A stretch of 64,000 nucleotides of DNA from Candidatus Eiseniibacteriota bacterium (GTDB lineage: Bacteria; Joyebacterota; Joyebacteria; Joyebacterales; Joyebacteraceae). Below the pieces are notes generated by a model that saw only the letters and a program-made list of their open reading frames with translations, ran no database searches and was not told the origin of the DNA. Below, piece by piece: positions 45,656-63,785 of this stretch. Numbering within the stretch: position 1 is the stretch's first letter; every line of letters begins with the position of its first letter. The position numbers were made by a program, and so were the translations under genes. The DNA lies in assembly GCA_043819135.1 (NCBI GenBank), contig JBDRFG010000106.1, positions 809 through 64,808 of the forward strand, written 5' to 3'.

Positions 45656-45712
45656 GAAGCCGGCCGCGGAGGCTCCGCGCCCGCTGCGAGAAAAGCGGTC
45701 GCTGGCATCTTT

Positions 45713-46870: not shown

Positions 46871-46873
46871 CGG

Positions 46874-47728
46874 ATGCCGGCGACCGAGAAGGACACCGGG
46901 CTGGGAACCACGTACGAGCGCGTCGCCGTTGCGCGGCTGCTCGCAAGGCTCGCTGAGAGGCACACGATACACAAGGTCCTCGAGGGACCGACCGACGGCA
47001 TAACGGGCATCAGCGGGCTCAACAGCATCCCGCTGGCGCAGCGGGGCGCCTCCGTCGAGCTCGTGCTCGGCGAGCCGGACGAGGTCGCGCTCGCTGAGCG
47101 CGCATGGAGCGCTCTCGGCCTGAGTGACAGAGTGATCATCCGTTCGGCCGACGGGGATTCCCTCGGTGTCGAGCCGCGCTCGTTCGACCTCGTGTGGAAC
47201 TTCAATTCCCTGCCGCAGGTCGCCTCGGCCGACGCACTTCTCGACGAGATGTGCGAGGCGAGCGCGAGGTTCGTCATGGTCTTTGTCTCCAACACCTGGA
47301 ACTACGGGTTCCCCGTCCACCGCCTCCACCACAAGGCGGCGGGCGAGGCGTGGAGCCACGGCAACATCTCCGTGATGAACACAAGGGTGATCGCAAGGAA
47401 GCTCGCCGACCGGGGATTCGAGGTCGTGGAACGTTTGCTCGTCGACACGCCGTGGTGGCCGGACATCGACTCGCCGATAGAGGAAGTGGCCGCGACCTTC
47501 CTGCCGTTCCTGAAGAGGTTCGTCAGCGGCTCCAAGAGGTTGGAGAGGTACACCTGGACGATCGACACGCTGCCGTACTTCGACGAAGCACGCAGAACCA
47601 AGCTTCTGTCCGACATCGAGAAGCACTTCGCAATAGAGAACACCGGCTTCCCGCCGCTCAAGATCTTCTTCGCCCACCACAGAGGCGTGCTGGCGCAGAG
47701 GCTGAACGGCGAGGAGGCGTCGGCATGA
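46874..47728 (+). CDS. putative class I SAM-dependent methyltransferase-fold protein
   Basis: Rossmann-like motif I is VLEGPTDGITGISG. An acidic post-I residue (VELVLGEPDE) and motif II FDLVWNFNSL follow. The assignment is weak. Confidence 0.4.
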   Translation: MPATEKDTGLGTTYERVAVARLLARLAERHTIHKVLEGPTDGITGISGLNSIPLAQRGASVELVLGEPDEVALAERAWSALGLSDRVIIRSADGDSLGVEPRSFDLVWNFNSLPQVASADALLDEMCEASARFVMVFVSNTWNYGFPVHRLHHKAAGEAWSHGNISVMNTRVIARKLADRGFEVVERLLVDTPWWPDIDSPIEEVAATFLPFLKRFVSGSKRLERYTWTIDTLPYFDEARRTKLLSDIEKHFAIENTGFPPLKIFFAHHRGVLAQRLNGEEASA

Positions 47729-48819: not shown

Positions 48820-49792
48820 CATCGTCCTTGTAACGGGCGCGGCGGGCTTCGTCGGCTCACACGTCGTCGAGCGCCTGCTCGCCGACGGCAGGAACGTCCG
48901 CGGGGTGGACGCCTTCACGGACTACTACCCGCGCGCGTTCAAGGAAGAGAACCTCCGAGGAGCGCGTGACAACGCGTCCTTCGAGCTCGTGGAGGCCGAC
49001 CTGGCGGTCGCCGACCTCGCGCCCATCCTCGACGGAGTGACGTCCGTCTGCCACCTGGCCGCCCAGGCGGGGGTCAGGGCCAGCTGGGGTACGACGTTCT
49101 CGACGTACATCAAGTGCAACATTCTGTCGAGCCAGCGTCTGCTCGAGGCCGTCAAGGACGGAGGCGTCTCCAAGTTCGTTTACGCCTCGTCTTCCTCGGT
49201 CTACGGAGAGACCACGGACCTTCCGATGCGCGAGAACGGGCTCACCTGCCCGGTGTCCCCTTACGGCGTCACCAAGCTCGCCGCCGAACATCTCGCGGTG
49301 CTCTATCACCGGAACTACGGCGTCCCGACCGTGTCGCTGAGGTACTTCACCGTCTACGGTCCGCGCCAGCGACCCGACATGGCGTTTCATCGTTTCATAC
49401 GCTCGGGACTCCTCGACGAGCCCATCACGATCTACGGCAACGGCCACCAGACGCGCGATTTCACTTACATCGACGACACCGTCGCCGCTACCGTTGTGGC
49501 CCTTGAATCGGGCCCCGATGGAAGCGTGCTGAACGTAGGGGGTGGGAGCCGTGTCACACTCAATGACGCTCTGGACGCCATAGAGGGCTGCCTGGGCGCT
49601 GCTCTCGACAGGCGCTACGTCGAGCGCGCCAGGGGAGACGTCACTGACACGCTCGCTGACAACTCGAGGGCCAGAGAGACACTCGGCTTCCGTCCGCGCG
49701 TCGGGCTCCCGGAGGGATTGGAGCGCGAGAGGGAGTGGATCGAATCGACGGCGCTCACGCTTGGCGAGGGCGCGAACGGGGAGGTCGGCTGA
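48812..49792 (+). CDS. NAD-dependent nucleotide-sugar epimerase/dehydratase (extended SDR)
   Basis: The Rossmann motif VTGAAGFVGSHV, the catalytic YGVTK and the YFTVYGPRQRPDMAF motif are present. Confidence 0.8.
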   Translation: MGDIVLVTGAAGFVGSHVVERLLADGRNVRGVDAFTDYYPRAFKEENLRGARDNASFELVEADLAVADLAPILDGVTSVCHLAAQAGVRASWGTTFSTYIKCNILSSQRLLEAVKDGGVSKFVYASSSSVYGETTDLPMRENGLTCPVSPYGVTKLAAEHLAVLYHRNYGVPTVSLRYFTVYGPRQRPDMAFHRFIRSGLLDEPITIYGNGHQTRDFTYIDDTVAATVVALESGPDGSVLNVGGGSRVTLNDALDAIEGCLGAALDRRYVERARGDVTDTLADNSRARETLGFRPRVGLPEGLEREREWIESTALTLGEGANGEVG

Positions 49793-49795
49793 CAC

Positions 49796-50749
49796 ATGGA
49801 TATCTCTATCGTGATACCGCTTCTGAACGAGGCCGACAGCATCAGAGAGCTGTACGAGCGCATCGGGGCCGCGCTCACTCCCCTCGGGCGGGAGTGGGAG
49901 GTAGTTTTCATCAACGACGGCAGCACCGACTCCTCGATGGACGTCCTGCGGAGCCTCCACGAACAGAACGACAACGTCAGGGTGCTCGTGTTCGGCCGGA
50001 ACCTCGGCAAGTCGGCCGCTCTCAGCGTGGGGTTCAAGGAAGCCGCGGGCGATGTCGTGTTCACGATGGACGCCGATCTGCAGGATGACCCGGCCGAGCT
50101 GCCCGCGATGCTCGAGGTCATAGAGAGCGGGTACGACCTCGTCTCAGGCTGGAAGAAGGAACGCCATGACCCGCTGTCCAAGCGGCTCCCGTCGAAGCTC
50201 TACAACGCGGTGACCGCGAGGCTCTCCGGCGTACGCATCCACGACATGAACTGTGGTCTCAAGGCCTACCGTTGCCAGGTCGTGAAGACCATCAGGGTAT
50301 ACGGCGAGCTTCATCGCTACACGCCCGTCCTGGCGCAGTGGGCGGGCTTCACGGTGACCGAGGTCGTGGTCAAGCATCACGCGCGCCAGTACGGCCGCTC
50401 CAAGTTCGGCGCGGAGCGCTTCGTCAGGGGGTTCTTCGACCTCGTGACGGTGCTGTTTCTGCGCCGCTACATCACGAGGCCCCTCCACCTGTTCGGGATG
50501 CTGGGCGCGCTGCTGTTCGCGGGCGGATTTCTCTCCGGGGTCTATCTGACGGTCCTCAAGCTCATGGGAGAGGCGATAGGCCGCAGGCCTCTCCTGACCC
50601 TCGCCATTCTACTCATGGTCATCGGCGTGCAGTTCATCTCGTTCGGCCTCCTCGGGGAGATGGTGGCGAATCTCAAGGGGGACGACATCTCGTTCCCCGT
50701 GAGGGAACGTCTGGGCCGGAAGGGCGGTGAGCTTGGCGACAGCGCCTGA
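49796..50749 (+). CDS. polyprenol-phosphate glycosyltransferase, GT2 (DPM1/ArnC/GtrB-like) with C-terminal TM hairpin
   Basis: ISIVIPLLNEADSI...VVFINDGSTD...DADLQDDP form the DxD region. Two C-terminal TM helices follow. Confidence 0.75.
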   Translation: MDISIVIPLLNEADSIRELYERIGAALTPLGREWEVVFINDGSTDSSMDVLRSLHEQNDNVRVLVFGRNLGKSAALSVGFKEAAGDVVFTMDADLQDDPAELPAMLEVIESGYDLVSGWKKERHDPLSKRLPSKLYNAVTARLSGVRIHDMNCGLKAYRCQVVKTIRVYGELHRYTPVLAQWAGFTVTEVVVKHHARQYGRSKFGAERFVRGFFDLVTVLFLRRYITRPLHLFGMLGALLFAGGFLSGVYLTVLKLMGEAIGRRPLLTLAILLMVIGVQFISFGLLGEMVANLKGDDISFPVRERLGRKGGELGDSA

Positions 50750-51935
50750 CAGGAGTTCGCCCGCGGACGCGCCTCTCGCGACCGAGGAAAGCGCGCGCAT
50801 TGCCGTCGTCGGCCCGGCCTATCCGCTCCGGGGCGGCAACGCACTCTTCGTCGCCCACCTCTACGACAACCTCAGGCTCGACCACGACACGTACGTCGTC
50901 TCGTTCACGCGGCTGTATCCGTCTCTGCTCTTCCCGGGGAAGACGCAGATGAACGTCAGCCGCGACCCCGTGAAGAACACGCCGTCGCGGCAGATCATCG
51001 ATTCCGTCAATCCGTTCTCCTGGCTGAAGGCTGTCAGGTGGATCTCCCAGCCGCGGAGACGACCCGACATGGTCGTCTTCGTCTGGTGGAACCCCTTCTT
51101 CGGAATATGCTACGGCACGATGGCGCGGTTGCTCCGGCGAAGGACAGGCGCCCGTGTGGTCTTCGTGTGTGAGAACGTCGTGTCACACGAGAACCGGTTC
51201 GCCGATCAGTTCCTCACGAAGTTCGCGCTCGCTTCGGCCGACTACTTCATGGTCCTTTCCGGCGTCGTCGCGAACCGCGTCCACTCACTCTTCCCTCGGA
51301 CGCCGGTGAGGCAAGCGGCGCTGCCGATCTACGACTGCTACGCACCGTCCGGGATCGACAGAGACGCGGTCAGGAAATCGCTGGGACTCACGCGGCCGAC
51401 CGTGCTCTTCTTCGGTTACGTCCGCGAGTACAAGGGCCTGGCGTATCTGCTCCGTGCGATGCCCCTGATACTCAAGGAGGTCGACGTAGAGCTGCTCGTC
51501 GTCGGGGAGTTCTACGACGACCGCTCCAAGTACGACCGGATCATCGACGAATTGAGCTTGGGCGAGCGGGTCCATGTGGTCGCCGAACACGTCCCCGACG
51601 AGTCGGTTGGGGACTACTTCTTGGCCGCCGATGTGGCCGTGCTGCCCTACGTATCGGCCACGCAGAGCGGAATCACTCAGATAGCCATTGCCGCAGGCCT
51701 TCCCGTGATAAGCACCGACGTCGGGGGACTCCCTGAGGTGGTGCGGGACGGGGAAACGGGCTATATTGTGAAACCTGAGGACGAAGGGGAGCTTGCTGCC
51801 GCCGTCGTGCGATACTTCAAGAGCGGAGATGCCCCTCGGATGAGGGCGAACGTGGCCCTGGAGGCCCAGCGCGACCACGCGGGTGACCTTATGCGCAGGG
51901 CCGTTCGTGACTTCCTCGAGATGGCGAGGTCTTAG
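50727..51935 (+). CDS. family 4 (GT-B) glycosyltransferase
   Basis: The C-terminal GT4 signature is EYKGLAYLL...GEF...GLPVISTDVGGLPEVVRDGETGYIV. Confidence 0.75.
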   Translation: MSLATAPDRSSPADAPLATEESARIAVVGPAYPLRGGNALFVAHLYDNLRLDHDTYVVSFTRLYPSLLFPGKTQMNVSRDPVKNTPSRQIIDSVNPFSWLKAVRWISQPRRRPDMVVFVWWNPFFGICYGTMARLLRRRTGARVVFVCENVVSHENRFADQFLTKFALASADYFMVLSGVVANRVHSLFPRTPVRQAALPIYDCYAPSGIDRDAVRKSLGLTRPTVLFFGYVREYKGLAYLLRAMPLILKEVDVELLVVGEFYDDRSKYDRIIDELSLGERVHVVAEHVPDESVGDYFLAADVAVLPYVSATQSGITQIAIAAGLPVISTDVGGLPEVVRDGETGYIVKPEDEGELAAAVVRYFKSGDAPRMRANVALEAQRDHAGDLMRRAVRDFLEMARS

Positions 51936-51936
51936 G

Positions 51937-52833
51937 GTGCAGCATCCCCCAGTCTGGGCGGTCGTTGTCAACTGGAATGGTCTAGAGGTTGTCGAGCCCT
52001 GTCTGCGGACGCTGCTCGCCTCGTCTTATCCGAACCTCTCGGTGCTGGTCGTGGACAACGCGTCGTCCGACGGGTCCGCGCATTTCGTGCGTGAGGAGTT
52101 CCCTTCCGTGCGCGTGGCCGAACAGCCGTCGAACCGCGGCTACGCGGCCGGAGTGAACGCGGGTCTGACAGTCGCGCTCGATGGGGGAGCGGAGTACGTG
52201 CTGCTCCTCAACAACGACATCGAACTGGACGCCGGGGCGGTGAGCGCTCTGGTCGATGTCGCGACCGCGCATCCGCAAAGCGCGTTCGTTGGTCCCATGA
52301 TCTACTACGCCGACCGTCCGAACGTCATCTGGTCGGCGGGGGGCGCCGTCTCCTTCTGGTCAGGTGGTATACGGCACCTCGGGCTGCGGGAGGAGGACGT
52401 CGGACAGTATGCCGGCGTCCGAGAGGTCGACTACGTCACCGCGTGTGCCGTGCTCGCTTCCGCGAGCGCCGTCAGGAAGATCGGCCCGATGGACGAAAGC
52501 TACTACATGTACAACGAGGACACGGACTGGTGCGTCCGTGCCCGAAGTGCGGGGTTCACCGTGCTCGTCGCTCCGACCGCGAAGATCTGGCACAAGGTCT
52601 CGATGAGTTCAGGCGGCGGGCTGACGCCTTTCAGGATCTACAACCGGTTGCGCAGCACCCTGAGGTTCTTCTCCCTGCACGCGCGGCCGTACCACTGGCT
52701 CGGTATCCTCCCTCTGACGGCGTGTCGGACCGTTGGCTTCGCGGCGCGCGAACTGGTCGGAGGAAGGGGCGGCAACGTCGGAGCGGTCCTGCGGGGACTC
52801 TGGGATTCGATCACGAGACGAAGGAGAGCCTGA
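51937..52833 (+). CDS. family 2 glycosyltransferase (rhamnosyltransferase-like)
   Basis: AVVVNWNG...VVDNASSDGS...LLNNDIEL..., YMYNEDTDWCVRA are typical GT2 features. It is paralogous to the N-domain of the last gene in the locus. The GTG at 51937 lies 2 nt after the upstream stop. Confidence 0.75.
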   Translation: MQHPPVWAVVVNWNGLEVVEPCLRTLLASSYPNLSVLVVDNASSDGSAHFVREEFPSVRVAEQPSNRGYAAGVNAGLTVALDGGAEYVLLLNNDIELDAGAVSALVDVATAHPQSAFVGPMIYYADRPNVIWSAGGAVSFWSGGIRHLGLREEDVGQYAGVREVDYVTACAVLASASAVRKIGPMDESYYMYNEDTDWCVRARSAGFTVLVAPTAKIWHKVSMSSGGGLTPFRIYNRLRSTLRFFSLHARPYHWLGILPLTACRTVGFAARELVGGRGGNVGAVLRGLWDSITRRRRA

Positions 52834-52837
52834 ACAA

Positions 52838-54259
52838 GTGCACAGAACGCACTACACGAAGACACCCCCGGCTGCCACCGGACGCCGCGCGCGGGCGCTG
52901 ACCGTCGCGAGCGCGTTCGCTGCGGCCGTTCTGCTGGCGATGCTCCTGCCGCTGGCCGGGTGCTCGAGCGAGGAACCCCCGGCAAGACACCCGCGCCTCG
53001 TCCTCTTCGGGATTGACGCGGCGAACTGGAACATTCTTACCCCCATGATGCAGGCGGGCGAACTGCCTGCCATGACTTCGCTGGTCAATCGCGGCTCCTT
53101 CGGAGTGTTGAAGACGGGTGTACCGATCCAGTCGCCGCAGATGTGGACATCAATAGCAACGGGTGTCGTTCCGGAGAGGCACGGCATCACGCGTTTCACG
53201 GCCGTGATCCCGGGAACGGACCGCGAAGTCCCGGTGACGAGCAACATGAGGAAGGTCAAGGCCTTCTGGAACATCCTCTCCGAGGCGGACGTCTCCGTCG
53301 GCATCGTGGGATGGTGGCCGAGCTGGCCCGCCGAAGAGGTCAACGGTTTCATGATCGCGCAGCGCGCGTGGCCCGTCAACTGGAGCCGTCACGGGATCCC
53401 GTTCGGAGCCGCACGCGATGCGTCGGGACGTCTGATCGTTGAGGACTTCCCGGGACGAACCTACCCGGAGGAGCTCTACGCTGACTTCGAGCCGTTCATC
53501 ATCACCGAGGAGGACGTGACGGCCGACGAGCTGTCTCTCCTCTTCCAGGACCCCTCGTTCACCAACCCGGCCAAGCAGTTCCACGCCCGGTGGGTGTTCG
53601 CCAAGGACAAGACCTTCGCGGACGCGGGGCTGGCGATGCTCAAGCGCTTCAATCCGGATGTGTTCGCGGTCTATCTGCAGGGCACGGACGTGGTGTCCCA
53701 CTACTACTGGGGCGATCAGCGCGAGGAGGGCTTCGTCGTCTCTCCGTCCAACGAGCGGCTGTACGGCAGCGTCGTGAGGAACTATTACCGCTACGTCGAC
53801 GGCGTGATCGCGGATTACCTCGCGGAGATCGGTGACGACACGACCGTCATGATCGTGTCCGACCACGGCTTCGAGACCAAGCGCGACCTCAAGGAGCTGT
53901 GGGAGAGAGGCGAGAAGATAAGGACCGTGGAAGGCGGCAAGGACGTACCGTGGGACCACGGCGTGGACGGCGTGTTCATCATGGCGGGCCCCGGTATCAG
54001 GGAAGACTTCAGACTGCCGGAGGCGTCGGTGGTGGACATCACCCCGACGATGCTCGCCTACCTGGGACTCCCGGTGGCCGAGGACATGGACGGAGTTCCT
54101 GTGCTCGCGGCGTTCACCGAGTCCTACCTTGCGCAATACCCGGTCACGTTCGTTCCAACGTACGAGACCGACGGGCCCCGGGGCGACGATGCTCCGATGG
54201 AGTCGCCGATGGATGATGGGATCAAGGAGAAGCTCAGGGCGCTCGGCTACATAGAGTAG
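52838..54259 (+). CDS. AlkP-superfamily type I phosphodiesterase/nucleotide-pyrophosphatase-like lipoprotein
   Basis: The signal peptide has the lipobox LAGC. LVLFGIDAANWNIL, VPERHGI and IVSDHGFE metal-site motifs are present. The C-terminus ends in LGYIE. AAGGAGAG lies before the GTG start. Confidence 0.65.
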   Translation: MHRTHYTKTPPAATGRRARALTVASAFAAAVLLAMLLPLAGCSSEEPPARHPRLVLFGIDAANWNILTPMMQAGELPAMTSLVNRGSFGVLKTGVPIQSPQMWTSIATGVVPERHGITRFTAVIPGTDREVPVTSNMRKVKAFWNILSEADVSVGIVGWWPSWPAEEVNGFMIAQRAWPVNWSRHGIPFGAARDASGRLIVEDFPGRTYPEELYADFEPFIITEEDVTADELSLLFQDPSFTNPAKQFHARWVFAKDKTFADAGLAMLKRFNPDVFAVYLQGTDVVSHYYWGDQREEGFVVSPSNERLYGSVVRNYYRYVDGVIADYLAEIGDDTTVMIVSDHGFETKRDLKELWERGEKIRTVEGGKDVPWDHGVDGVFIMAGPGIREDFRLPEASVVDITPTMLAYLGLPVAEDMDGVPVLAAFTESYLAQYPVTFVPTYETDGPRGDDAPMESPMDDGIKEKLRALGYIE

Positions 54260-54293: not shown

Positions 54294-55400
54294 ATGCCGA
54301 TTCATGTCAAGACCGATTGCAGACTGTTTCTGGGTGACAGGCCCTGCGCGTGGGGCGGGCGGTGCGAGGCGTGCGAGCACTACGCTCCACGGGGCGAGCA
54401 CATAGTCGTCGTCAAGCTGGCGGCGGCCGGTGACGTGCTCCGCACCACGTCGATACTGCCTCCTCTCAAGAGGGCGCATCCCGACTCGTACGTTACCTGG
54501 ATAACCGACCGCGGCGCGCTCCCGTTGATGGAGCGCAATCCCTTCATTGACCGCGCGCTGCCGTTCTCGTTCGGCACGTGGCTCACGCTGTCCGTGCAAT
54601 CCATCGACCTTCTCATCTGTCTGGACAAGGAGGAGCGCGCCTGCGCGCTTGCCTCGTCACTCGACGCCGCCGCGAAAGTCGGATTCGCGATGTCGTCAGC
54701 AGGCGGAGTGGAGCCGCTGAACGACGGGGCGCGTTACGACTACGAGCTGGGCCTGTCCGACGAGATGAAGTTCCGCGAGAACACGATGACTTATCCTGCG
54801 ATCTTCTGCCGGACCGCCGAACTGAAGTATGAGAGCGAGCCCTACATGCTGGCTCTCCCGGAGCTATCGATCGAGTACGCCCGGCGCTTCCTTGGAGGCC
54901 TCTCGTTCACAGAGCCGCTCGTGGGGCTCAACGTGGGCGCGGGTCGCGTTTTCGCGAACAAGGCCTGGACACCGGCGGGGTACGCCGCGCTGGCCGATGC
55001 GGTACGCGAGCGGCTCGGAGGGACGGCGATCGTCCTCGGCGGGCCGGACGACAGAGAGCGGGCCGAAGCGGTGATGGCCCTGGCGCCCGAGACGACCGTA
55101 GACGGCGGGCTGCATGAGGTCCTCGATTTCGCGGCCATCGTGGGCATGCTCGACGCGATGGTAACGGGGGACACGCTGGCGATGCACATAGCGATCGCTC
55201 TCGGCGTGCCCGTGATCGCGCTGTTCGGACCCAGCGCGCCTCAGGAGATCGAACTCTTCGGCTCAGGCGGGAAGGTGCTGACACCGCTCGACTGCGCGCC
55301 CTGCTACAGACGCGTGTGCGACAGGAGCCCGTCCTGCATGGACGCGATCGGTTTGGAGAGCGTGTTCGCGGCGCTCAAGGAGGCTCTCGAAGAGGCATGA
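54294..55400 (+). CDS. family 9 glycosyltransferase (heptosyltransferase-like)
   Basis: IVVVKLAAAGDVLRTTSILPPLK is the GT9 N-terminal motif. VGLNVGAG..., GGPDD and VTGDTLAMHIAIALGVPVIALFGPS match the RfaF/WaaC family. Confidence 0.75.
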   Translation: MPIHVKTDCRLFLGDRPCAWGGRCEACEHYAPRGEHIVVVKLAAAGDVLRTTSILPPLKRAHPDSYVTWITDRGALPLMERNPFIDRALPFSFGTWLTLSVQSIDLLICLDKEERACALASSLDAAAKVGFAMSSAGGVEPLNDGARYDYELGLSDEMKFRENTMTYPAIFCRTAELKYESEPYMLALPELSIEYARRFLGGLSFTEPLVGLNVGAGRVFANKAWTPAGYAALADAVRERLGGTAIVLGGPDDRERAEAVMALAPETTVDGGLHEVLDFAAIVGMLDAMVTGDTLAMHIAIALGVPVIALFGPSAPQEIELFGSGGKVLTPLDCAPCYRRVCDRSPSCMDAIGLESVFAALKEALEEA

Positions 55401-57184
55401 CCGCTGATACTCCTCATAATCCCCGCGGCCGAGGCGAAGGCGTGATGTGGAGAACGCTCGTCCTCACGTCCGTCGGATTCGCGCTGGCAACCGGCGCCCT
55501 GTTGGGCGTCACGGGCCTCAGGACCAGCGGTTTCGCGCTGTCACTCGCGCCGCGTCAGATTCTGCCCATGCTCGTCGCGTTCGCGGTTGTGTACGCCGCG
55601 CTCGGCGGGCTGGTTCTTCCGCTGACGACCCGCTCCAGAAGACGAGCGCCCACTCCCGGCGCCTCAGAGCGCGCGGTCTTCGGAGCTCTGGCGACCGTGA
55701 CCCTCTGGGTCGCACTTGTGCTCACGTTCCTTCCGCTCAAGGGTTCAGAGGCCTTCGTGCGGGCGGACACGCTCACGACGCTCCAGCTGAACGTGATAGG
55801 GCTCGCGGTCGTGTTGGTGGTCGGGCTCGTTGTCGGGTGGCTCTTAGCGTGGGCGCTGTCGCGCGTGCTCTCGTTTCTGAGGAGGCGTGTCCCCGGAAGG
55901 GGAGTGGCCGTCGTCGGAGCGATCTGCGCCGTGGTCGCTCTCGTCGTCCTTCTGGTTGGAGTTCAGGCGCGGACGGGCGGCGGGGGCGCTGGGAGCGCAT
56001 CCTCAGCGGCGGGTTCGGCGCCGCGCGTGGCCATCATCGGAGTCGACGGATGCGACTGGGAGAAACTCGGTCCACTGGTCGAATCCGGGAGACTTCCGAA
56101 CTTCGAGCGCTTGATGGAGCGGGGCGCACACGGGACGCTGTGGTCGGAGCCGCCCCTGATATCCCCGCGCATATGGACGACCATTGCGACGGGCAAGTCC
56201 GCGGACAAGCACGGCATCCGCGATTTCGTCAACGAGGCGGGCGTGCCCGTGAACGCGACCATGAGGTCAGCGGCGCCCGTGTGGGACATCGTATCCAGCT
56301 TCGGCCTTCCGGTCGGCGTCGTCGGGTGGTACGTCACGTGGCCCGTCGACGAGGTCAACGGCTTCCTGCTGTCCGACCGACTTCACTCGCTCATGCGCGG
56401 GCCCGTGCAGGTGCTTCAGTCGCTCGGCGGACGCCCCACCAACGAACGTCTGCAATCGTTCGGAGCGTTCACGTTCGACCCCGGATACAAGCGCTATCCG
56501 AGCGATGAGCTCCACCATCAGCAGAACAGGATCGTCGACGAGCCCCTTCGCTGGGGATACCTCCGGGACGCCATCTACTCCCGCATGTCGACAGCGCTGA
56601 CTCCCAGCTACAGGCCGACCCTGTCGGCCGTCTACCTGCGTGGCGTCGACTTCGTCCAGCACTTCTTCTGGAAGTACGCGGACCCCGAGCCTTTCGGGGA
56701 CGTTCCCGACGAGGACATCGCCGCCTACGGTGGTGTCATAGACAACTACTACGTCTACACGGACAAGCTTCTCGGCCGGCTGCTCGATGCGCTGGGCGAC
56801 GACGTCAACATCATCGTGGTCTCCGACCACGGCTTCAAGGCGCGCCTCGACCCGGACCCCGGGAGGCCTCAGCTGACCGGAACGCACGACGTGGCCGGGG
56901 TCTTCATTGCCTCCGGTCCTGCATTCAGTGCCTCGGGACGGTTCGAAGACGCGACGATATTCGACATCACACCCACGGCGCTCGCCGTCATGGGACTGCC
57001 AGTCGGGGAGGACATGGACGGCAGGGTGCTGACCGAGATCATCGAGGAGCAGCATCTCGCCGCCCGCCCGGTGTCGTTCATTCCCTCATACGAGCCCGCC
57101 GTCGGGAAGGAGAGGGGAGAAGTCGGGTCGACGATGGACGACTCGATCAGAGAGCAGCTCAAGTCGCTTGGCTACATCGAGTGA
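55397..57184 (+). CDS. membrane-anchored AlkP-superfamily type I phosphodiesterase-like protein (paralog of 52838..54259)
   Basis: About 5 N-terminal TM helices precede an extracytoplasmic domain with VAIIGVDGCDWEKL, DKHGI and IVVSDHGFK. The C-terminus ends in LGYIE like its paralog. The ATG overlaps the upstream stop as ATGA. Confidence 0.65.
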   Translation: MTADTPHNPRGRGEGVMWRTLVLTSVGFALATGALLGVTGLRTSGFALSLAPRQILPMLVAFAVVYAALGGLVLPLTTRSRRRAPTPGASERAVFGALATVTLWVALVLTFLPLKGSEAFVRADTLTTLQLNVIGLAVVLVVGLVVGWLLAWALSRVLSFLRRRVPGRGVAVVGAICAVVALVVLLVGVQARTGGGGAGSASSAAGSAPRVAIIGVDGCDWEKLGPLVESGRLPNFERLMERGAHGTLWSEPPLISPRIWTTIATGKSADKHGIRDFVNEAGVPVNATMRSAAPVWDIVSSFGLPVGVVGWYVTWPVDEVNGFLLSDRLHSLMRGPVQVLQSLGGRPTNERLQSFGAFTFDPGYKRYPSDELHHQQNRIVDEPLRWGYLRDAIYSRMSTALTPSYRPTLSAVYLRGVDFVQHFFWKYADPEPFGDVPDEDIAAYGGVIDNYYVYTDKLLGRLLDALGDDVNIIVVSDHGFKARLDPDPGRPQLTGTHDVAGVFIASGPAFSASGRFEDATIFDITPTALAVMGLPVGEDMDGRVLTEIIEEQHLAARPVSFIPSYEPAVGKERGEVGSTMDDSIREQLKSLGYIE

Positions 57185-58493
57185 TCCGCAGTCTCGGTCG
57201 ACGCGCCAGCTCCAGCACGGAGGGCCGGTGAGGGGCACCAACAGACTCCAGACCCTGCTTGCCAGACACGCATCCTCCACGCCGACGCGCGTCGGTCGCG
57301 TGTTTGCCGTGGTTCTCCTCGGCGCCGCCCTGCAACTGGTCACGCAGACCCTGCTCGCCCGCTCGCTCTCCAAGACCGAGGTCGGGCTGATATCGCTCCT
57401 GCTGGGCGCGCTCCCCATCCTGTCCACGTTGTCCATGGCCGGCCAGGGCGCTTCAGTGGTCCGCTTCCTCTCGAAGAGCGACCGCGGCACGTTCGACACC
57501 CCGTCGCACGTGCGCCGTGTTCTCGCCATCGTGCTCCCGCTGGGAGTCGTCGCGTCCTTCGCCGGCGCGGGTTTCTACGGGCTGGGCTGGAGCCTCGCTC
57601 TGGTCCTCCTTGCGCTGGTCCTCTCTCAGAACGTGGCCACCACCCTGAGCTCGGTGATGCGGGCGGAGCACCGCTACGAGCTGGCGATGACGGCCGTGCG
57701 GCTCCCGACGATAGCCTCCGGCGTCGTGCTGCTGGCGCTCAGGTTCGCCGGCACTCTCACGTACACGACCGCACTCGTGACGCTGGCCCTCGCGTTCGCG
57801 CTGTCCGGACTCCTGCTGTTACTGCTGCGCTCCGGAGCGGCCAGGAAGGACGCCGCGCCGGTTCCACGATCGGTCTTGCGCGAGGGCGTGTTCCTCCTGG
57901 GCCTGGACCTGTCCTTCGCGCTGATGGTGTCCGTCGACAAGCTGGTCATCGGGAAGATGATGCCCTACGCCGATCTGGCCGTCTACGCGTCGATATTCGC
58001 CGTCATGAGGGGCTTCGACTTCCTCTTCTACTCGATCAGCTTCGTCCTGATGCCGCGTGTCAACGTCATCAGGAAGCTCGAACTGCGGAAGTACAACCTC
58101 CTGATCGGCGGCCTCGCCGCCGTCGTTACGGCGGCGTATCTGCTAGCCGGCAAGAGCATCGTCAGTTTCCTCTACGCCGGCAGGTACGACGAGGGCGCCT
58201 ACCTGATACTGCCTTTCGCCTTGTCCGGCATCGCCAAGCTGTTCTACTCTGTTCCTTCCAGCGTGATAGGCGGACGGCTGCCGAGGCCGGCGCTCAAGCA
58301 GTTCATGTGGCTGAACCTCGCCGGCGTCGTCGTGAGCATCGTTCTCGACGTCATCATGATCAGGGCGATGGGACTGATGGGGGTGGCGATCGCAACGGCC
58401 ATCGCGTGGGGACTGCGCCTTGCCGGCGGATACGTCATCATTGCGCGGCACCGTTCGCATCTCGAGGAACCAACAGGAGAGAGAAACGCATGA
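57168..58493 (+). CDS. polysaccharide biosynthesis protein / Wzx-like MOP-superfamily flippase
   Basis: The protein has about 12 TM helices and the topology of Wzx-type flippases. The start codon is uncertain; the 5' end overlaps the previous gene. Confidence 0.55.
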   Translation: MATSSDPQSRSTRQLQHGGPVRGTNRLQTLLARHASSTPTRVGRVFAVVLLGAALQLVTQTLLARSLSKTEVGLISLLLGALPILSTLSMAGQGASVVRFLSKSDRGTFDTPSHVRRVLAIVLPLGVVASFAGAGFYGLGWSLALVLLALVLSQNVATTLSSVMRAEHRYELAMTAVRLPTIASGVVLLALRFAGTLTYTTALVTLALAFALSGLLLLLLRSGAARKDAAPVPRSVLREGVFLLGLDLSFALMVSVDKLVIGKMMPYADLAVYASIFAVMRGFDFLFYSISFVLMPRVNVIRKLELRKYNLLIGGLAAVVTAAYLLAGKSIVSFLYAGRYDEGAYLILPFALSGIAKLFYSVPSSVIGGRLPRPALKQFMWLNLAGVVVSIVLDVIMIRAMGLMGVAIATAIAWGLRLAGGYVIIARHRSHLEEPTGERNA

Positions 58494-60880
58494 CGGCCAA
58501 GAGAACAGCGAGGGCCGAGAAGGGCCCCCGCGAGACGACCCCGGCGAAGGCCTCACCACTCTTCGGGAACCGCGCGACGCTCGTGTCGGTGCTCCTGATA
58601 GTCACCGCGTGTTTCATTTTCTTCTGGCGAGTCATCTTCCTGGGCGAGATCCTGACCGGCGGGGACGTTCTGGCGGCCGCGGCGATCTTCGAGGACTACG
58701 CCAACGAGCAGATGGCGGCGGGCCACCTGCCACTCTGGAACCCTTACATATTCTCGGGCATGCCGTTCTTCGACAGCATGAGCTGGAGCGCGTTCGTCTA
58801 TCCCAGCTACTGGATCAAGTTCCTGCTGGAGAGGATCCCCGGCGTCCACATGCCCAGGCTCTTCTTCCTGTTCATTCACTACCAGCTTGCAGGGCTCGGC
58901 ACGTTCTTCTACCTGAGATCCCGGAAGGTGGGGCACGGCGGCGCGGTCATCGGTGGCATCGCATTCATGCTGTCTCCGCACCTGGTGGGGCTTGCGACCA
59001 TCGGTCACGGAGGGAAGATACTCGCGACGGCGTACATCCCGCTCGTCCTCATGGCCGCGCAGAAGCTCATGGAGTCGGCCGGGAGGCGCTGGATAGCCAT
59101 CCTCGGGCTGGTGGGCGGACTGCAGTTCCTGGCGCGCCACGTGCAGATAAGCTACTACACGTGGCTCGCCGTGCTGGTTCTCGTGATCTACTACCTCGTC
59201 TCGCGAAGGCGGGCCGGGGAGACGTGGGGCCCCCTGGGCTCGAGCGTCGGGTCCATAGCGGCGGGAGGCGTTCTTTCCGCCTTGCTGGCCGCGGTTCTGC
59301 TTCTGCCGCTCATGAGCTACTCGGGGTTCTCGACGCGCGCCGCCGAGGCCGGCGGCATGGGATTCGACAGCGCCGTGATGTGGTCGCTTCACCCGTATGA
59401 GCTAATGACCTTCCTGGTCCCGTCGTTCTTCGGCCTGGCGAACGAGACGTACTGGGGAACCATGCCGTTCCAGCAGGTCTCTCACTACGTGGGCTACGTG
59501 GTCCTGTCTCTCGCGGCGGTCGCGCTCATTCGCAGGCGGGACCGCAGCGTCGGATTCCTCCTGGTGCTCGTGGCCGTCGGGATCTTCATGGCGTTCGGGC
59601 GACACCTCGGACCTGTCTACAGAGTAATCTACCAGGTGCTGCCCGGCTTCCGGCGCTTCAGGGTGCCGGCGCTGTCGCTGATACTGGCCCAGTTCTCTTT
59701 GGCCACGCTGGCCGGCTACGGCGCGTCCATACTGCTGGGGGAGATGGGGCAGCGCAAGGAGAGCATGGTGCGGTGGGCCGCAGGTTGCGCTGCGGTCGGG
59801 GGTGCGGTCGCGCTCGTCGTGCTGGGCGCGAGGGGCGCGCTGGGGTCGGCGGCGACGACGGCTCTGCTGGTCAAGCACGTCGGCGCTCAGGTGGCCCAGC
59901 TCCGCGGCCTAGGGGCGACCGCCGCGACGCTCGCGTTCAAGGACGCTGGCATTCTACTCGCCTTCGCCGCGGCGTCCGGAGTGGCCATCTTCGTCGCCGG
60001 AACGCGCAGGCTCCAGCGGCCGCTTGTCTTCGCGCTGCTACTCGGACTGGTCGTCTGGGACGTAGGTTTGGTCAACGCGAGATTCATGAGGCCCGAGAAG
60101 ATGAGGCCGCTCGACTCCTACTACCCCGAGTCGCCGGCGGTGTCCTTTCTGAAACAGCAGGAGGGCGTGTTCAGGATCGCCCCCGTCGACCGCGAGTTCT
60201 CGTCGAACGCTTGGATGTATCACCGCATCGAGTCCATCGGGGGCTACCACCCGGCCAAGCTGGCGGTCACCGACGACGTCCTGAACAAGCTAAGCGTCAG
60301 CAACCTGAAGCTCCTGGCTTTACTCAACGTCAAGTATGTGGTCGGCCCCGAAGAACTCAAGCACCCGGCGTTCGTGCGGGTCGGTCCGGGGGTACACGAG
60401 AATCTCACGGTGCTTCCCAGGGTCTTCCTGGTCGGCGCGGCGAAGCGCGTCTCGAGCGGCAGCATGGTGCTGGCGGAGCTGCGTGTGGACAACTTCAATC
60501 CGGCGCAAACAGCGATAGTGACCGAGGAACTGCCCGGTCCCGTGGTCGGCGCCGAGGGGAGCGTCGCCGAACTCGTCTCCTACGAGCCGGGCGAGATCCG
60601 TGTGCGCGCCAGCATCCGGCAACCTTGTCTTCTCGTCTTCTCGGAGGTATACTATCCACCGGGCTGGAAGGCGTCCGTTGACGGCGCCGAGACAACCATC
60701 TATCGAACCGACTACGCCTTGAGATCCGTGTATCTCACGCCCGGTGAGCATACCGTGGTGATGAGCTACGTCCCGTCCCAATTGCGGCTCGGCCTCTTCA
60801 TCAGCCTCCTTGCGCTCGCGGCTCTGGTGGGGCTTCTGGTCTGGCCGGCACGAGCACAAGATGGGGGAGCCCCTGCGTGA
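58490..60880 (+). CDS. YfhO-family GT-C fold membrane glycosyltransferase
   Basis: The protein is about 796 aa. A large N-terminal polytopic domain (PLWNPYIFSGMPFF...) matches the YfhO family. A C-terminal extracytoplasmic domain follows. The ATG at 58490 has AGGAGAGAG upstream and overlaps the previous stop as ATGA. The track ORF starting at 58307 is rejected. Confidence 0.7.
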   Translation: MTAKRTARAEKGPRETTPAKASPLFGNRATLVSVLLIVTACFIFFWRVIFLGEILTGGDVLAAAAIFEDYANEQMAAGHLPLWNPYIFSGMPFFDSMSWSAFVYPSYWIKFLLERIPGVHMPRLFFLFIHYQLAGLGTFFYLRSRKVGHGGAVIGGIAFMLSPHLVGLATIGHGGKILATAYIPLVLMAAQKLMESAGRRWIAILGLVGGLQFLARHVQISYYTWLAVLVLVIYYLVSRRRAGETWGPLGSSVGSIAAGGVLSALLAAVLLLPLMSYSGFSTRAAEAGGMGFDSAVMWSLHPYELMTFLVPSFFGLANETYWGTMPFQQVSHYVGYVVLSLAAVALIRRRDRSVGFLLVLVAVGIFMAFGRHLGPVYRVIYQVLPGFRRFRVPALSLILAQFSLATLAGYGASILLGEMGQRKESMVRWAAGCAAVGGAVALVVLGARGALGSAATTALLVKHVGAQVAQLRGLGATAATLAFKDAGILLAFAAASGVAIFVAGTRRLQRPLVFALLLGLVVWDVGLVNARFMRPEKMRPLDSYYPESPAVSFLKQQEGVFRIAPVDREFSSNAWMYHRIESIGGYHPAKLAVTDDVLNKLSVSNLKLLALLNVKYVVGPEELKHPAFVRVGPGVHENLTVLPRVFLVGAAKRVSSGSMVLAELRVDNFNPAQTAIVTEELPGPVVGAEGSVAELVSYEPGEIRVRASIRQPCLLVFSEVYYPPGWKASVDGAETTIYRTDYALRSVYLTPGEHTVVMSYVPSQLRLGLFISLLALAALVGLLVWPARAQDGGAPA

Positions 60881-61590
60881 AAACCACGGTGGTAGTGCCC
60901 ACCTACAACGAGAGGGCAAACCTCGAGCAGCTGATACCTCGAGTACTCGGACAGCTGCCCGACATCGAGCTTCTGGTCGTCGATGACGGCTCGCCGGACG
61001 GGACGGGTGAGTACGCCGACTCGGTCGCCGCGAAAAACCCGCGCGTCCATGTGCTGCACCGGCCGGGGAAGATGGGCCTGGGCTCCGCGTACGTCTACGC
61101 TTTCAAACACACGCTGGCGACGGACGCCGAACTTATCATCCAGATGGACGCCGACTTCTCGCACGATCCCGACGTGATCCCGGATCTGGTGAAGCAGGCC
61201 GCCGAGCACGACGTCGTCCTCGGCTCGCGATACATCACCGGCGCCAACGTGGTCAACTGGCCGCTCCAGCGGCTGTTCCTGAGCTACTTCGCCAACGTGT
61301 ACACTCATATCATTACTGGATTGCCGCTCCGCGACTCGACCGGTGGTTTCAAGTGCTTCCACCGCAAGGTGCTGGCGGAGATCGAGCTCGATACCATCAG
61401 GTCGGACGGGTACTCGTTCCAGATCGAGGTCAACTTCAGGAGCTGGAGGAAGGGCTTCTCGATAGTCGAGATACCCATCGTGTTCGTTGACCGCCACGCC
61501 GGCACGTCGAAGATGTCCAGGCGAATCGTATGGGAGGCAATGTGGTTGGTCTGGCGCCTGAGACTCGAGAGAATCCTGAAGAGGCCGTAG
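60877..61590 (+). CDS. polyprenol-monophosphate hexose synthase (DPM1/Ppm1-like GT2, soluble)
   Basis: TVVVPTYNERANL...LVVDDGSPDGT...MDADFSHDP is very close to dolichyl/polyprenyl-phosphate mannose synthases. The GTG start overlaps the YfhO stop as GTGA. Confidence 0.75.
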   Translation: MKTTVVVPTYNERANLEQLIPRVLGQLPDIELLVVDDGSPDGTGEYADSVAAKNPRVHVLHRPGKMGLGSAYVYAFKHTLATDAELIIQMDADFSHDPDVIPDLVKQAAEHDVVLGSRYITGANVVNWPLQRLFLSYFANVYTHIITGLPLRDSTGGFKCFHRKVLAEIELDTIRSDGYSFQIEVNFRSWRKGFSIVEIPIVFVDRHAGTSKMSRRIVWEAMWLVWRLRLERILKRP

Positions 61591-63785
61591 CTCGATCTCA
61601 GGGGCCCGACCTCTCGATCGTCATCGTCGGCTACAACAGCCTGCCGGAGCTGGGCGAGTGTCTGGCGTCCGTGCGCGATTCCGACGGCTCCGCGCGCATC
61701 GAGGCTGTGGTCGTCGACAACGCCTCGACGGACGGGACGGTCGAGTTCCTCGAGCGGGAGCACCCCGAGGTCCGCCTGGTGGCCAACGGCAGGAACGTGG
61801 GGTACTCCAGAGCGGTCAATCAAGGCATCGCCGAGGCGCGAGCGGGCTACGTCCTCGTCCTCAATCCGGACATCGTGGTCCTTCCCGGCGCGCTCGACCG
61901 GCTCGTTTCCTTCATGGACGAGCGCCCCAATGTGGGAATAGCCGGCTCGAAGCTGCTGAATCCCGACGGCTCGCTGCAGCACTCGTGCAGGCGGTTCTAC
62001 ACGTTCTGGACGCTCGTGCTTCGAAGGACACCGCTAGGGAGGCTCTTCAAGAACGGACGCACGATCTCGAACTACCTCATGCTCGACTTCGATCACGAGC
62101 GATCCAGGGAGGTTGACTGGGTCATCGGGGCCTGCATGATCGTGCGGAAGGCCGCGCTGGCGGACTTCGGGGGAATGGACGAGCGCTTCTTCCTCTATTT
62201 CGAGGACGTGGACTGGTGCTACAGAGTGTGGCAGAGCGGCTGGAAGGTCTGGTACGTGGCCGACTCGGTCATGCGGCACCGCCACGCGCGTGAGAGCGCG
62301 CGCCCCGGGCTGTCGAAGCAGCTCATCGCGCACGGCCTCTCTATGATCCACTTCTACGAGAAGTGGGGGAAGGCGATCTATCGGTTGAAGAAGTACAGGC
62401 GCGTGCTCACGAACTCGGTGCTGCTTGTCTCGGACCTGGTCGCCATCAACGGCGGCTTTGCGCTGGCGTACGTTCTCAGGTCTAGTTTGAAAGGGCTCCT
62501 GGAAAAACCGATGTTCGGCGTGTCCGTCTACGGCACGTTCCTGGTGTTCGCCAACCTGGTGTTCGCGTTCTCGTTCGCCTTCTTCGGCCTCTACGGCGCC
62601 ACCATCGAGAGGGAGAGGGCGTCCGATGTGACAATGCGGGTCTTCCGGGCGACCGTTGTATCCGCCATCATCCTGATGGCGAGCACGTACCTCACGTCAC
62701 AGACGGTCTACTCGCGAGTCCTTGTCGGGGCGTTCTGCGTGCTTGCGGTGGTGCTGACCGTGGTCCTCCGCATGGGGCTCAAGAGGCTCCACAGCATGGT
62801 GCGCGCCGGGCGGTTCGACCTTACCAGAGTGGCGGTCGTGGGCACCGACGAGACGGCCCGCCGCGTGGCGGAGCGGCTGCTCCAGCATTCAGCTCTGGGC
62901 TACGACCTCGCGGGACTCGTGTCCACGAACGGCGGTGACCGGCCGCCGGGATTCCCGGTGATCGGCCGCCTCGAAGAACTGCCGGAGTTCATCGAGAAGT
63001 ACCGGATCGGCGAGGTGATATTCGCAGATCCCGACGTATCCCACGAGAGGATCGCCGACTTCCTGCTCAAGGCGAGGAGGAGCGCCGTCGACGTCAAGAT
63101 GGTCTCGGGGTTGACGTCAATACTCACACAGCGCGCGAAGGTAGAGGAGTTTCTGGATCTCCCCGTCGTTGCTTTTGAACGTGAGGCGTTGCTGCGTGCG
63201 GGCGCCGTAGCCAAGCGAGCGCTGGACGTTGTCGGCGCCGCGGTCCTCCTGGTCGCCTGGACGCCCCTCCTGATTATCACGTCCGTCACGACGCTGGTCG
63301 GCAGACGAACAGGGCCCTTCTCGGCTGTTCCCAGAGCCGGGCTCGAGGCAGAGACCTTCGGCATGTACCGTCTCAACCGCGACGGCAAGGCGACCGCGCT
63401 CCGGAGGTTCGTCCTCCGGCACGGGTTCTCCCTGTTCCCGGCGGTCATCAACGTCCTCAAGGGGGAGATGAGCTTCGTCGGGCCGCGAGCAGTCGCTCCG
63501 GTCGATCTGGAGACACTCAGCTTGCGGGAACGCCTGAGATTCGACGCGCGACCCGGCCTCACCGGCCTCTCCCAGGTCTCGGCGGCGGAGGCCGCGAGTT
63601 CACACGACGAACTCAGGGCTCTCGACGCCTACTACGTGCAGAACTGGTCGCTGAGCGGGGACGTCAAGATCGTGATGAGATGGTTCATGCAGTGTCTGCT
63701 CGGGTGGGCCGATGTGCCTTCGGACGAGGGCTTGCCCGCCAAGTCGGTGACGTCGGACGTGTCCGCCCACAAGGACGGCGTCTGA
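61530..63785 (+). CDS. fusion protein: N-terminal GT2 glycosyltransferase + C-terminal polyprenyl-phosphate hexose-1-phosphate transferase (WbaP/CpsE-type PGT)
   Basis: Residues ~20-290 form a GT2 domain (IVIVGYNSL...VVDNASTDGT...YFEDVDWCYRVW). About 4 TM helices follow, then the PGT catalytic domain (VGPRAV...PGLTGLSQVS...YVQNWSLSGDVKIVMRW). The start (ATG 61530 or GTG 61542) lies inside the 3' end of the upstream gene. Confidence 0.7.
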   Translation: MGGNVVGLAPETRENPEEAVARSQGPDLSIVIVGYNSLPELGECLASVRDSDGSARIEAVVVDNASTDGTVEFLEREHPEVRLVANGRNVGYSRAVNQGIAEARAGYVLVLNPDIVVLPGALDRLVSFMDERPNVGIAGSKLLNPDGSLQHSCRRFYTFWTLVLRRTPLGRLFKNGRTISNYLMLDFDHERSREVDWVIGACMIVRKAALADFGGMDERFFLYFEDVDWCYRVWQSGWKVWYVADSVMRHRHARESARPGLSKQLIAHGLSMIHFYEKWGKAIYRLKKYRRVLTNSVLLVSDLVAINGGFALAYVLRSSLKGLLEKPMFGVSVYGTFLVFANLVFAFSFAFFGLYGATIERERASDVTMRVFRATVVSAIILMASTYLTSQTVYSRVLVGAFCVLAVVLTVVLRMGLKRLHSMVRAGRFDLTRVAVVGTDETARRVAERLLQHSALGYDLAGLVSTNGGDRPPGFPVIGRLEELPEFIEKYRIGEVIFADPDVSHERIADFLLKARRSAVDVKMVSGLTSILTQRAKVEEFLDLPVVAFEREALLRAGAVAKRALDVVGAAVLLVAWTPLLIITSVTTLVGRRTGPFSAVPRAGLEAETFGMYRLNRDGKATALRRFVLRHGFSLFPAVINVLKGEMSFVGPRAVAPVDLETLSLRERLRFDARPGLTGLSQVSAAEAASSHDELRALDAYYVQNWSLSGDVKIVMRWFMQCLLGWADVPSDEGLPAKSVTSDVSAHKDGV

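Follow-up and report, generated by a model that had tools for sequence, protein, structure and literature searches.

A putative pseudo-phosphoglycosyltransferase scaffold fused to a GT2 glycosyltransferase at the end of a conserved glycosylation gene cluster in Candidatus Eiseniibacteriota

Phosphoglycosyltransferases (PGTs) are taken to catalyse the committed first step of bacterial glycoconjugate pathways. In a 64,000-nucleotide stretch of the genome of Candidatus Eiseniibacteriota bacterium (GenBank assembly GCA_043819135.1, contig JBDRFG010000106.1, positions 809 to 64,808; hereafter the window), we analysed a gene at 61542..63785 on the + strand whose product joins a family 2 glycosyltransferase (GT2) domain to a PGT-like body. 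The PGT-like domain keeps the fold of its superfamily and has lost the catalytic residues, and the gene lies in a conserved glycosylation gene cluster. We consider it fairly probable that the protein is an active GT2 anchored on a pseudo-PGT scaffold within a transmembrane glycosylation operon. The GT2 would then act on a lipid-linked acceptor, and the PGT relic would serve as its scaffold.

A GT2 domain precedes a complete large-PGT body

The open reading frame (ORF) runs uninterrupted over 61530..63785 (+) and encodes 751 amino acids, the numbering used for residues throughout. We annotated the coding sequence from GTG 61542, giving 747 amino acids, with ATG 61530 as the alternative start of the 751-residue version. 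The shorter form is 100% identical to NCBI protein P0001 (747 amino acids, named 'sugar transferase'), which implies the GTG start, and a GGAGG lies at 61533-61537, 4 nt 5′ of this codon. Either start falls within the upstream DPM-like gene (60877..61590, stop codon at 61588-61590), with an overlap of 61 nt from ATG 61530 or 49 nt from GTG 61542. The GC content of the fusion ORF by codon position (0.85 at the third position, GC3) resembles that of the other genes in the window.

Pfam assigned Glycos_transf_2 (PF00535) to residues 29-152 (E 8.6e-25, 88 bits) and Glyco_tranf_2_3 (PF13641) to residues 26-256, followed by CoA_binding_3 (PF13727) at residues 352-525 (E 3.7e-17) and Bac_transf (PF02397) at residues 562-721 (E 1.2e-25; 90.5 bits against a cut-off of 27), the last covering profile positions 1-176 of 179. 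A four-transmembrane-helix bundle of the large-PGT type (62418..62774, +; residues ~297-415) lies between the GT2 and CoA_binding_3 domains. It is marked by Kyte-Doolittle peaks at 297-315, 336-354 and 397-415 and by long helices in the AlphaFold2 (AF2) model at residues ~290-319, 331-351, 364-388 and 396-426 (converted to the 751-residue numbering). The Rossmann-like 'DUF' of large PGTs follows (62802..63176, +), seen as the PF13727 match and as a beta-alpha-beta arrangement at 428-545 in the model, with G438, G457, D459 and G462 as its conserved positions. In WbaP, this DUF is a dimerisation and uridine-nucleotide-binding domain (PMC10942596). The domain order is therefore GT2, four transmembrane (TM) helices, DUF and PGT fold; the large-PGT body is complete and the GT2 is an addition ahead of it. 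Hydropathy agrees with the AF2 model on this layout. The whole-chain model is confident (pLDDT 83.8, pTM 0.72).

NCBIfam models of PGTs gave the same extent. TIGR03025, TIGR03023 and TIGR03022 (the set comprises EPS_sugtrans, WcaJ and WbaP models) aligned from residue 301 to ~720, and all scored under their curated cut-offs: 223.9 against 295.55 for TIGR03025, 187.9 against 410.75 for TIGR03023 and 140.7 against 403 for the third. A preliminary description of this DNA had proposed a single polypeptide made of a GT2 and a WbaP-type PGT homologue, with its start codon inside the 3′ end of the DPM-like gene. Both proposals hold: the ORF is uninterrupted, Pfam finds Glycos_transf_2 and Bac_transf in it, and homologues occur in more than 100 assemblies. 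The description had also placed the GT2 where the N-terminal membrane and DUF region of such enzymes normally lies. This proved mistaken, as the helix bundle and PF13727 domain are still present between the GT2 and Bac_transf domains.

The PGT-like domain keeps its fold and has lost its catalytic signature

We compared the PGT-like domain (63213..63692, +; residues 562-721) with characterised monotopic PGTs (monoPGTs), whose catalytic Asp-Glu dyad is Asp93-Glu94 in PglC and lies within 'SLDELPQL' in WbaP. In the alignment to WbaP (8T53 and other WbaP entries), 'rktSLDELPQLFNVLKG' is matched by 'rhGFSLFPAVINVLKG' of the fusion protein, so that Ser634-Leu635 (63429..63434, +) stand in place of the dyad, with Asp replaced by Ser and Glu by Leu. 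This replacement is not peculiar to one genome. Among 115 full-length homologues, the Asp column reads V in 45, S in 34, D in 14 and A in 10, and the Glu column N in 40, R in 29 and S in 12 plus others, with Glu in none. The column of the GPRP Arg reads Y46, A18, E17 and R14, which suggests that this residue is not under selection, although the fusion protein itself has R653 ('VGPRA'). The KFR(T/S)M motif is gone from the fusion protein ('FGMYRLNRDG'), ~28 residues that follow it in WbaP are deleted, and the motif is missing throughout the dyad-less family. A Latescibacterota-type subfamily also lacks 'LRRFxxRH'. In the distant members L030, L034-37, L041 and L044, ~51 residues spanning the whole catalytic segment are deleted.

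The profile scores follow this erosion. Bac_transf gives 216 bits for L042, a canonical fused PGT that has the KFR(T/S)M motif, 152 for P0118, 90 for the fusion protein and 53-80 for distant members, which match only profile positions ~90-178, the C-terminal half. Mean identity of the relatives to our protein is highest in the GT2 domain (56%), then 40% in the four-helix bundle, 36% in the DUF and lowest, 32%, in the PGT domain. To judge from these sequences, the order is the reverse of what would be expected for an active PGT. The Asp of the dyad is said, from work by Das et al. 2017, to form the covalent phosphosugar intermediate. Since the dyad and the KFRTM motif are lost, and a large share of the family has lost the GPRP Arg as well, synthesis of an undecaprenyl-diphosphate sugar by the known covalent-intermediate mechanism would be impossible.

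The structural features of the domain have fared differently. G645, S648, G651-P652, R674-P675-G676 and D711 survive; G645, S648, G651, P652, P675 and D711 are invariant, and D711 aligns with an Asp conserved in WbaP. In Foldseek searches, the C-terminal part matched PglC (8E37/8G1N) with TM scores of 0.73-0.76 and a root-mean-square deviation of 2.8-3.6 Å over 177 columns, and WbaP (8T53) with an E-value of 1.3e-18. The AF2 model thus has a PglC-like three-dimensional fold, and its confidence in this domain, together with the invariant structural positions, indicates purifying selection on a folded domain. Selection that apparently acts on the fold and not on the chemistry is the signature of a pseudoenzyme domain.

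The re-entrant membrane helix, 'KRALDVVGAAVLLVAWTPLLIITSVTTLV' (63213..63299, +), also retains its hallmarks. Re-entrant topology is determined by a Lys-Arg motif and a Ser/branched-chain-residue-Pro break 17 residues on (PMC6133551). In the family, K562 and R563 are at least 93% conserved, and the fusion protein reads 'KRALD...AWTP', ending in a Thr-Pro break. A Pro 17 residues past the Lys, the spacing of Lys7 and Pro24 in PglC, is the modal state (110 sequences), and some Pro occurs in the stretch in 151 of 187.

The GT2 domain is predicted to be catalytically competent

The GT2 domain (61605..62399, +; residues ~26-290) is identified by PF00535 and PF13641, is modelled with pLDDT above 90, and matches GT-A enzymes in Foldseek (WrtF 9omh, GalNAc-Ts). 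N112-P113-D114 (61863..61871, +) is a variant of the DxD motif that binds metal and nucleotide sugar, as its alignment to the DxD of 6P61 and chondroitin synthase (K4CP) indicates. E225-D226-V227-D228-W229 (62202..62216, +) aligns with the 'ED' acceptor and catalytic-base block of the same two enzymes. Both motifs are at least 93% conserved across the 115 homologues, as are D63, N64, S66 and D68, and in a 64-sequence alignment (A1) NPD and the E, D, V and D of the second motif are invariant. Asn stands at the first DxD position in the whole subfamily, including a paralogue in the window (NND) and L042 (NAD). That paralogue is the stand-alone GT2 at 51937..52833, with 30% identity over 237 amino acids (E 6e-29). 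The domain therefore carries the family match, the GT-A fold, the DxD-type motif and the ED block of inverting GT2 enzymes. The curated GT2 models all remained below threshold (TIGR01556, 57.8 against 200.55), and so they assign no donor or acceptor specificity.

The preliminary description had taken the GT-A motifs to be intact and the N-domain to be paralogous to the GT2 at 51937..52833, and our results agree, with DxD present as the NPD variant. It had also suggested that the protein could both prime the lipid carrier and add the second sugar, on the understanding that the motifs of both domains would survive alignment. Those of the GT2 did; the PGT dyad did not, and with KFRTM also gone the priming role is not supported.

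The fusion family is widespread and has dyad-bearing relatives

At least 115 nr90 clusters contain the same four-domain protein at full length, and 80 reference-genome loci encode it. The sources are Ca. Eisenbacteria/Eiseniibacteriota, Latescibacterota, Krumholzibacteriota, Gemmatimonadota and Fibrobacteraceae metagenome-assembled genomes (MAGs), and one Desulfatiglandales MAG. Since the ORF recurs in more than 100 independent assemblies, a frameshift or assembly artefact is excluded, and the same fusion, which the preliminary description had proposed to look for in other taxa, is present in several phyla.

Some relatives retain the catalytic signature. L042, the 738-residue protein of the Desulfatiglandales MAG, has the same GT2 ('FFLYFEDVDWCYR') before a PGT with KFRTM, FDEIPQ, GPRP and KPGITGLWQV. 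In an exhaustive profile search over 1.84 billion representatives, 75 of the best 150 matches, which we examined, were full-length fusions; Asp-Glu was present in 12 of these 75, mostly together with KFR(T/S)M and GPR, and absent from ~63. A rough neighbour-joining tree of the GT2, four-helix and DUF regions, which carries no support values, places the Asp-Glu forms as deep and paraphyletic; the dyad-less forms make up two or more large derived clades, and others are scattered. The pattern suggests that the dyad was lost more than once among fusions of a GT2 with a large PGT.

Other members of the family vary in context and size. In L085 (1098-3831), a dyad-bearing and apparently active fusion (P0179) follows genes for three sulfotransferases, one GT2 and one GT4, a cluster that differs in kind from those of the dyad-less clade. 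P0132 has 1387 residues, of which the first 674 match the whole family profile and ~700 form a C-terminal extension. Several giant proteins of 1,700-4,400 amino acids hold 7-13 tandem copies of the fusion's GT2 type; the representative matches listed for P0132 and these giants are P0132, P0167, P0178, P0181 and P0197.

The fusion gene lies at the end of a conserved glycosylation gene cluster

Directly upstream of the fusion gene, and overlapping its start, lies the DPM/GacI-like GT2 gene (60877..61590, +), encoding a 237-residue putative polyprenyl-phosphate glycosyltransferase (PF00535, 120 bits). Its product has sub-threshold NCBIfam matches to AglJ, PgfS, dolichyl-P-hexose transferase, PpgS and ArnC and has no TM helix (maximum KD19 1.17). 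Before it stands a YfhO-family GT-C-type membrane glycosyltransferase (58490..60880, +; PF09586), and before that a candidate Wzx-like (Polysacc_synt) flippase (57168..58493, +; PF01943, 29.2 bits), which is kept upstream in the Eisenbacteria loci. The mechanically called YfhO ORF begins at GTG 58307 and overlaps the Wzx-like gene by 187 nt. ATG 58490 is probably the true start, because it forms an ATGA stop/start overlap with the preceding gene and drops an Arg/His-rich N-terminal extension.

This gene order is conserved. The fusion gene adjoins the DPM-like gene in 77 of 79 related loci. Sequence reaches far enough upstream in 61 loci, and in 48 of these the end of a YfhO-like ORF meets the start of the DPM-like gene. 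In the window, no + strand terminator was found between 57 and 64 kb, that is, among the Wzx-like, YfhO, DPM-like and fusion genes. Adjacent, syntenic genes thus appear to co-encode a GT-A resembling synthases of undecaprenyl-phosphate (C55-P) sugars, a flippase and a GT-C. Of the five informative fusions that bear Asp-Glu, none has a neighbouring DPM-like or YfhO gene. An in-frame joining of the DPM-like and fusion proteins was considered for the loci with long matches (L018, L025, L028, L029, L032 and L073) and rejected on the one inspected by hand, L025, which has the two genes in different frames.

We looked for another PGT that might initiate the pathway. With tblastn, WbaP fragments matched only the fusion gene in the window, and Pfam, run on 44 ORFs of the window, all except about ten short ones, revealed no further Bac_transf, no Glycos_transf_4 and no WecA-type gene. 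A monoPGT motif scan over ±10 kb in 82 related loci found the canonical motif only in L042's own fusion, and the Pfam tables of L001 and L002 contain no WecA-type gene.

The operon genes belong to a larger glycan locus spanning 43.6-63.8 kb of the window. It opens with a GT2, a radical-SAM/SPASM protein, a DUF362 protein, a weak methyltransferase match and then an epimerase; continues with a GtrB-like GT2 with two C-terminal TM helices, a GT4 and the paralogous GT2; and ends with an AlkP-type phosphodiesterase, a GT9, a second AlkP-type phosphodiesterase and the four genes from the Wzx-like flippase to the fusion. The radical-SAM/SPASM, DUF362 and methyltransferase-like genes (44522-47728) suggest an unusual sugar or peptide modification. 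The GtrB/CsbB-like GT2 (49796-50749), of polyprenyl-phosphate type, is flanked by the NAD-epimerase (48812-49792) and the GT4 (50727-51935), and this block recurs a few kilobases upstream of the fusion in most related loci, Latescibacterota included. The AlkP-superfamily (Phosphodiest/Sulfatase) proteins at 52733-54259 and 55316-57184 flank the GT9 heptosyltransferase-like gene, and both proteins are also conserved in the close relative L001. An ORF at 47844-48689 (281 amino acids) has no Pfam match and fills the only unassigned gap in the cluster; one at 29270-30520 on the - strand (416 amino acids) likewise has no match.

In relatives, the DNA downstream of the fusion (L001 12291-17312, L002 12175-15898) encodes a large protein with faint Reg_prop matches and then a DegT-type aminotransferase, and L001 additionally has a PglF-like dehydratase with the four-helix and DUF module and an acetyltransferase. 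Together, these downstream genes resemble a diNAcBac/QuiNAc4NAc-type sugar pathway. Such pathways are normally coupled to a dedicated PGT.

Elsewhere in the window, an RmlA-like nucleotidyltransferase with a hexapeptide tail adjoins RmlD, a dTDP-4-dehydrorhamnose reductase (14167-16115), and so a rhamnose-type donor may be available to the rhamnosyltransferase-like GT2s of the cluster. A PcrB-family gene (GGGP/heptaprenylglyceryl-phosphate synthase-like, 13289-14053) lies near a UbiA-family prenyltransferase gene (17401-18291), a pair that would be compatible with archaeal-type ether-lipid synthesis in a bacterial genome of the FCB group. The window also encodes selenocysteine synthase SelA (31050-32462) and a membrane H+-pyrophosphatase (22158-24194), housekeeping genes unrelated to the fusion.

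A predicted scaffold role and its alternatives

We propose that the N-terminal GT-A domain is the sole catalytic part of the protein and would work on the cytoplasmic face, with the four-helix bundle, the nucleotide-binding and dimerisation DUF and the PGT-fold relic forming its membrane anchor. As a dimeric scaffold, the relic probably keeps the GT2 at the membrane interface, and it may still bind the polyprenyl lipid. The fusion would be the last gene of a conserved, translationally coupled operon, after the Wzx-like flippase, the YfhO GT-C and the DPM-like GT-A that lacks TM helices. Given this setting, it would act in a multi-component transmembrane glycosylation pathway and not as its initiating enzyme. 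Several observations weigh against this proposal. In the AF2 model the re-entrant helix is a single unbroken helix and does not show the break, and the scans described above found no other PGT in the window or near relatives as pathway initiator. Asp is kept at the first dyad position in 14 of 115 homologues and the GPRP Arg is kept in the fusion protein, making residual or altered chemistry still conceivable. In addition, an Asp two residues before the dyad position ('SDxVNLP') is conserved in the Latescibacterota-type subfamily and could conceivably substitute for the dyad.

An alternative view is that the protein is a true bifunctional enzyme whose PGT domain moves hexose-1-phosphate to undecaprenyl phosphate and whose GT2 adds the second sugar. 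Its architecture fits the known Bi-PGT class, and fusions with the full canonical PGT signature exist, namely L042 and the 12 of 75 representatives with Asp-Glu. The fusion protein keeps GPR, RPG.TG and the PGT fold, and the scans found no other PGT in the window or in the relatives' neighbouring DNA. However, the dyad is Ser-Leu, Glu occurs in none of the 115 close homologues and KFRTM is lost. The PGT domain is also the least conserved and is partly deleted in relatives, and the curated PGT models are not reached. We regard bifunctionality as very unlikely. The degenerate PGT part and the start within the upstream gene might instead point to an artefact, a frameshift or an assembly join, or to a pseudogene drifting to loss. 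The ORF is intact in more than 100 independent assemblies from several phyla, its GC3 of 0.85 is typical, and the invariant positions and confident model of the PGT-like domain speak for maintenance; the chance that this explanation is correct is negligible, and the conservation across assemblies rules it out.

Two further explanations grant that the PGT domain is inactive and give it another partner. The pseudo-PGT may be the membrane partner of the DPM-like GT-A, keeping a polyprenyl-phosphate site and tethering or activating that enzyme, much as GacJ serves GacI and DPM3 serves DPM1. At this site a C55-P-sugar would be produced; the Wzx-like protein would flip it for use by YfhO, and the fused GT2 would build or modify the acceptor. 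In keeping with this, the DPM-like protein has no TM helix of its own. In 77 of 79 loci its gene overlaps the fusion gene or lies directly against it, its conservation exceeds that of the PGT-like half, and none of the five informative dyad-bearing fusions has it as a neighbour. The re-entrant-helix Pro implicated in polyprenol binding by PglC is kept at the same spacing, and there is precedent for a GT-A that works with a membrane partner encoded separately, alongside a Wzx-type flippase and a GT-C (PMC8035078). Yet this support is purely correlative, conservation is lacking at the KFRTM Lys and the GPRP Arg, the basic residues expected to contact the phosphate of the lipid, YfhO is missing in 13 of 61 loci, and the TM-anchored GtrB-like GT2 at 49796-50749 could supply C55-P-sugar instead. 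We see this partnership as possible, though on balance doubtful. The protein might otherwise be a regulatory or hetero-oligomeric decoy that pairs, through its helix bundle and DUF, with a genuine large PGT encoded elsewhere, coupling initiation to the second glycosyl transfer or sensing UMP or UDP-sugar. WbaP does dimerise through the DUF beta-hairpin and TM bundle, its DUF binds uridine nucleotides (PMC10942596), and the fusion's DUF keeps G438, G457, D459 and G462. Against such pairing, mean identity in the DUF is only 36%, and neither the monoPGT motif scan nor the L001 and L002 Pfam tables show a partner PGT near any locus; it seems to us unlikely.

A GT2 anchored on a pseudo-PGT scaffold therefore remains our preferred reading. 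We tentatively put forward a bolder extension, for which we hold only limited expectation: the family may be the first recognisable pseudoenzyme lineage of the monotopic PGT superfamily, acting as a polyprenyl-lipid-facing platform that carries its own GT2 and docks the DPM-like synthase. If so, FCB-group bacteria would possess a so far undescribed kind of machine for transmembrane glycosylation, made up of this platform, the Wzx-like flippase and YfhO. There are also consequences for annotation. Genome annotation assigns an initiating-PGT role from a Bac_transf match, and this family indicates that such a match can be a catalytically dead scaffold. The initiator of the cluster would then lie elsewhere, and pathway reconstructions built on the match in Eisenbacteria, Latescibacterota and Krumholzibacteriota would be wrong. 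The seemingly active and seemingly dead versions of the same fusion offer a natural experiment on the non-catalytic roles of the PGT fold, the re-entrant helix and the DUF. The gene order further suggests that uncultured Gram-negative phyla, in which systems of this kind are uncharacterised, have a conserved glycosylation operon of the YfhO type.

Comparison with known systems

Bi-PGTs are a named class in which a catalytic domain is fused to a monoPGT core, as described in later summaries of O'Toole, Imperiali & Allen 2021 (PMC11626204, PMC10942596). Like them, the fusion protein has a glycosyltransferase domain on one polypeptide with a Bac_transf/PglC-fold domain. It differs in that its PGT half is without the Asp-Glu dyad and KFRTM and is the least conserved domain, so that a second catalytic domain is fused but the two domains do not both appear competent. 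Moreover, where those summaries describe catalytic domains joined to the monoPGT core, our protein adds the whole accessory module of large PGTs, the four helices and the DUF. The searchable literature, which did not cover the original 2021 network paper, yielded no conserved dyad-less PGT body fused to a GT2 and coupled to a DPM-like/YfhO operon. No report of a PGT pseudoenzyme was found in this literature either; the inactive proteins in PMC6133551 are engineered PglC variants.

The large monoPGTs (WbaP of S. enterica 8T53, WcaJ and CpsE) have the four-helix bundle, the PF13727 DUF and the PGT fold in the same order as the fusion, and WbaP is the best structural and sequence match to residues ~300-720. 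Unlike these enzymes, the fusion has an extra N-terminal GT2, a ~28-residue deletion after the KFRSM position and a replaced dyad. PglF-like UDP-sugar dehydratases carry the same N-terminal four-helix and DUF module (PMC10942596). They show that enzymes other than PGTs also make use of the module, as a chassis for membrane anchoring or regulation. In PglF, an active dehydratase follows the module, whereas in the fusion an inactive PGT fold follows it and the presumably active enzyme is at the other end. In L001, a PglF-like gene (CoA_binding_3 + Polysacc_synt_2) lies two genes downstream of the fusion.

The operon as a whole resembles the CsbB/GtcA/YfhO and GacI/J/K/L systems in that it includes a GT-A of the DPM/CsbB type, a candidate Wzx-type flippase and a GT-C of the YfhO family. 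In the GacI/GacJ/GacK/GacL system, a GT-A without TM helices needs a separate membrane partner alongside the Wzx-type flippase and the GT-C (PMC8035078), and GacI, like the DPM-like GT-A of the operon, has no membrane anchor of its own. These systems decorate teichoic acids and rhamnans in Gram-positive bacteria, and none of them holds a GT2-pseudoPGT protein; GacJ, a small protein with three TM helices, has no relation to PGTs, unlike the pseudo-PGT of the fusion. The GT2 half itself compares with WbbL-type rhamnosyltransferases (TIGR01556) and the WrtF fucosyltransferase (9OMH), which share its GT-A fold, NxD/DxD and ED motifs. Those enzymes are stand-alone, unlike the fusion's GT2, which is joined to a membrane module. 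In conclusion, a fusion of a glycosyltransferase with a PGT is as such already known, and the unusual feature of this family is its apparently dead PGT half.

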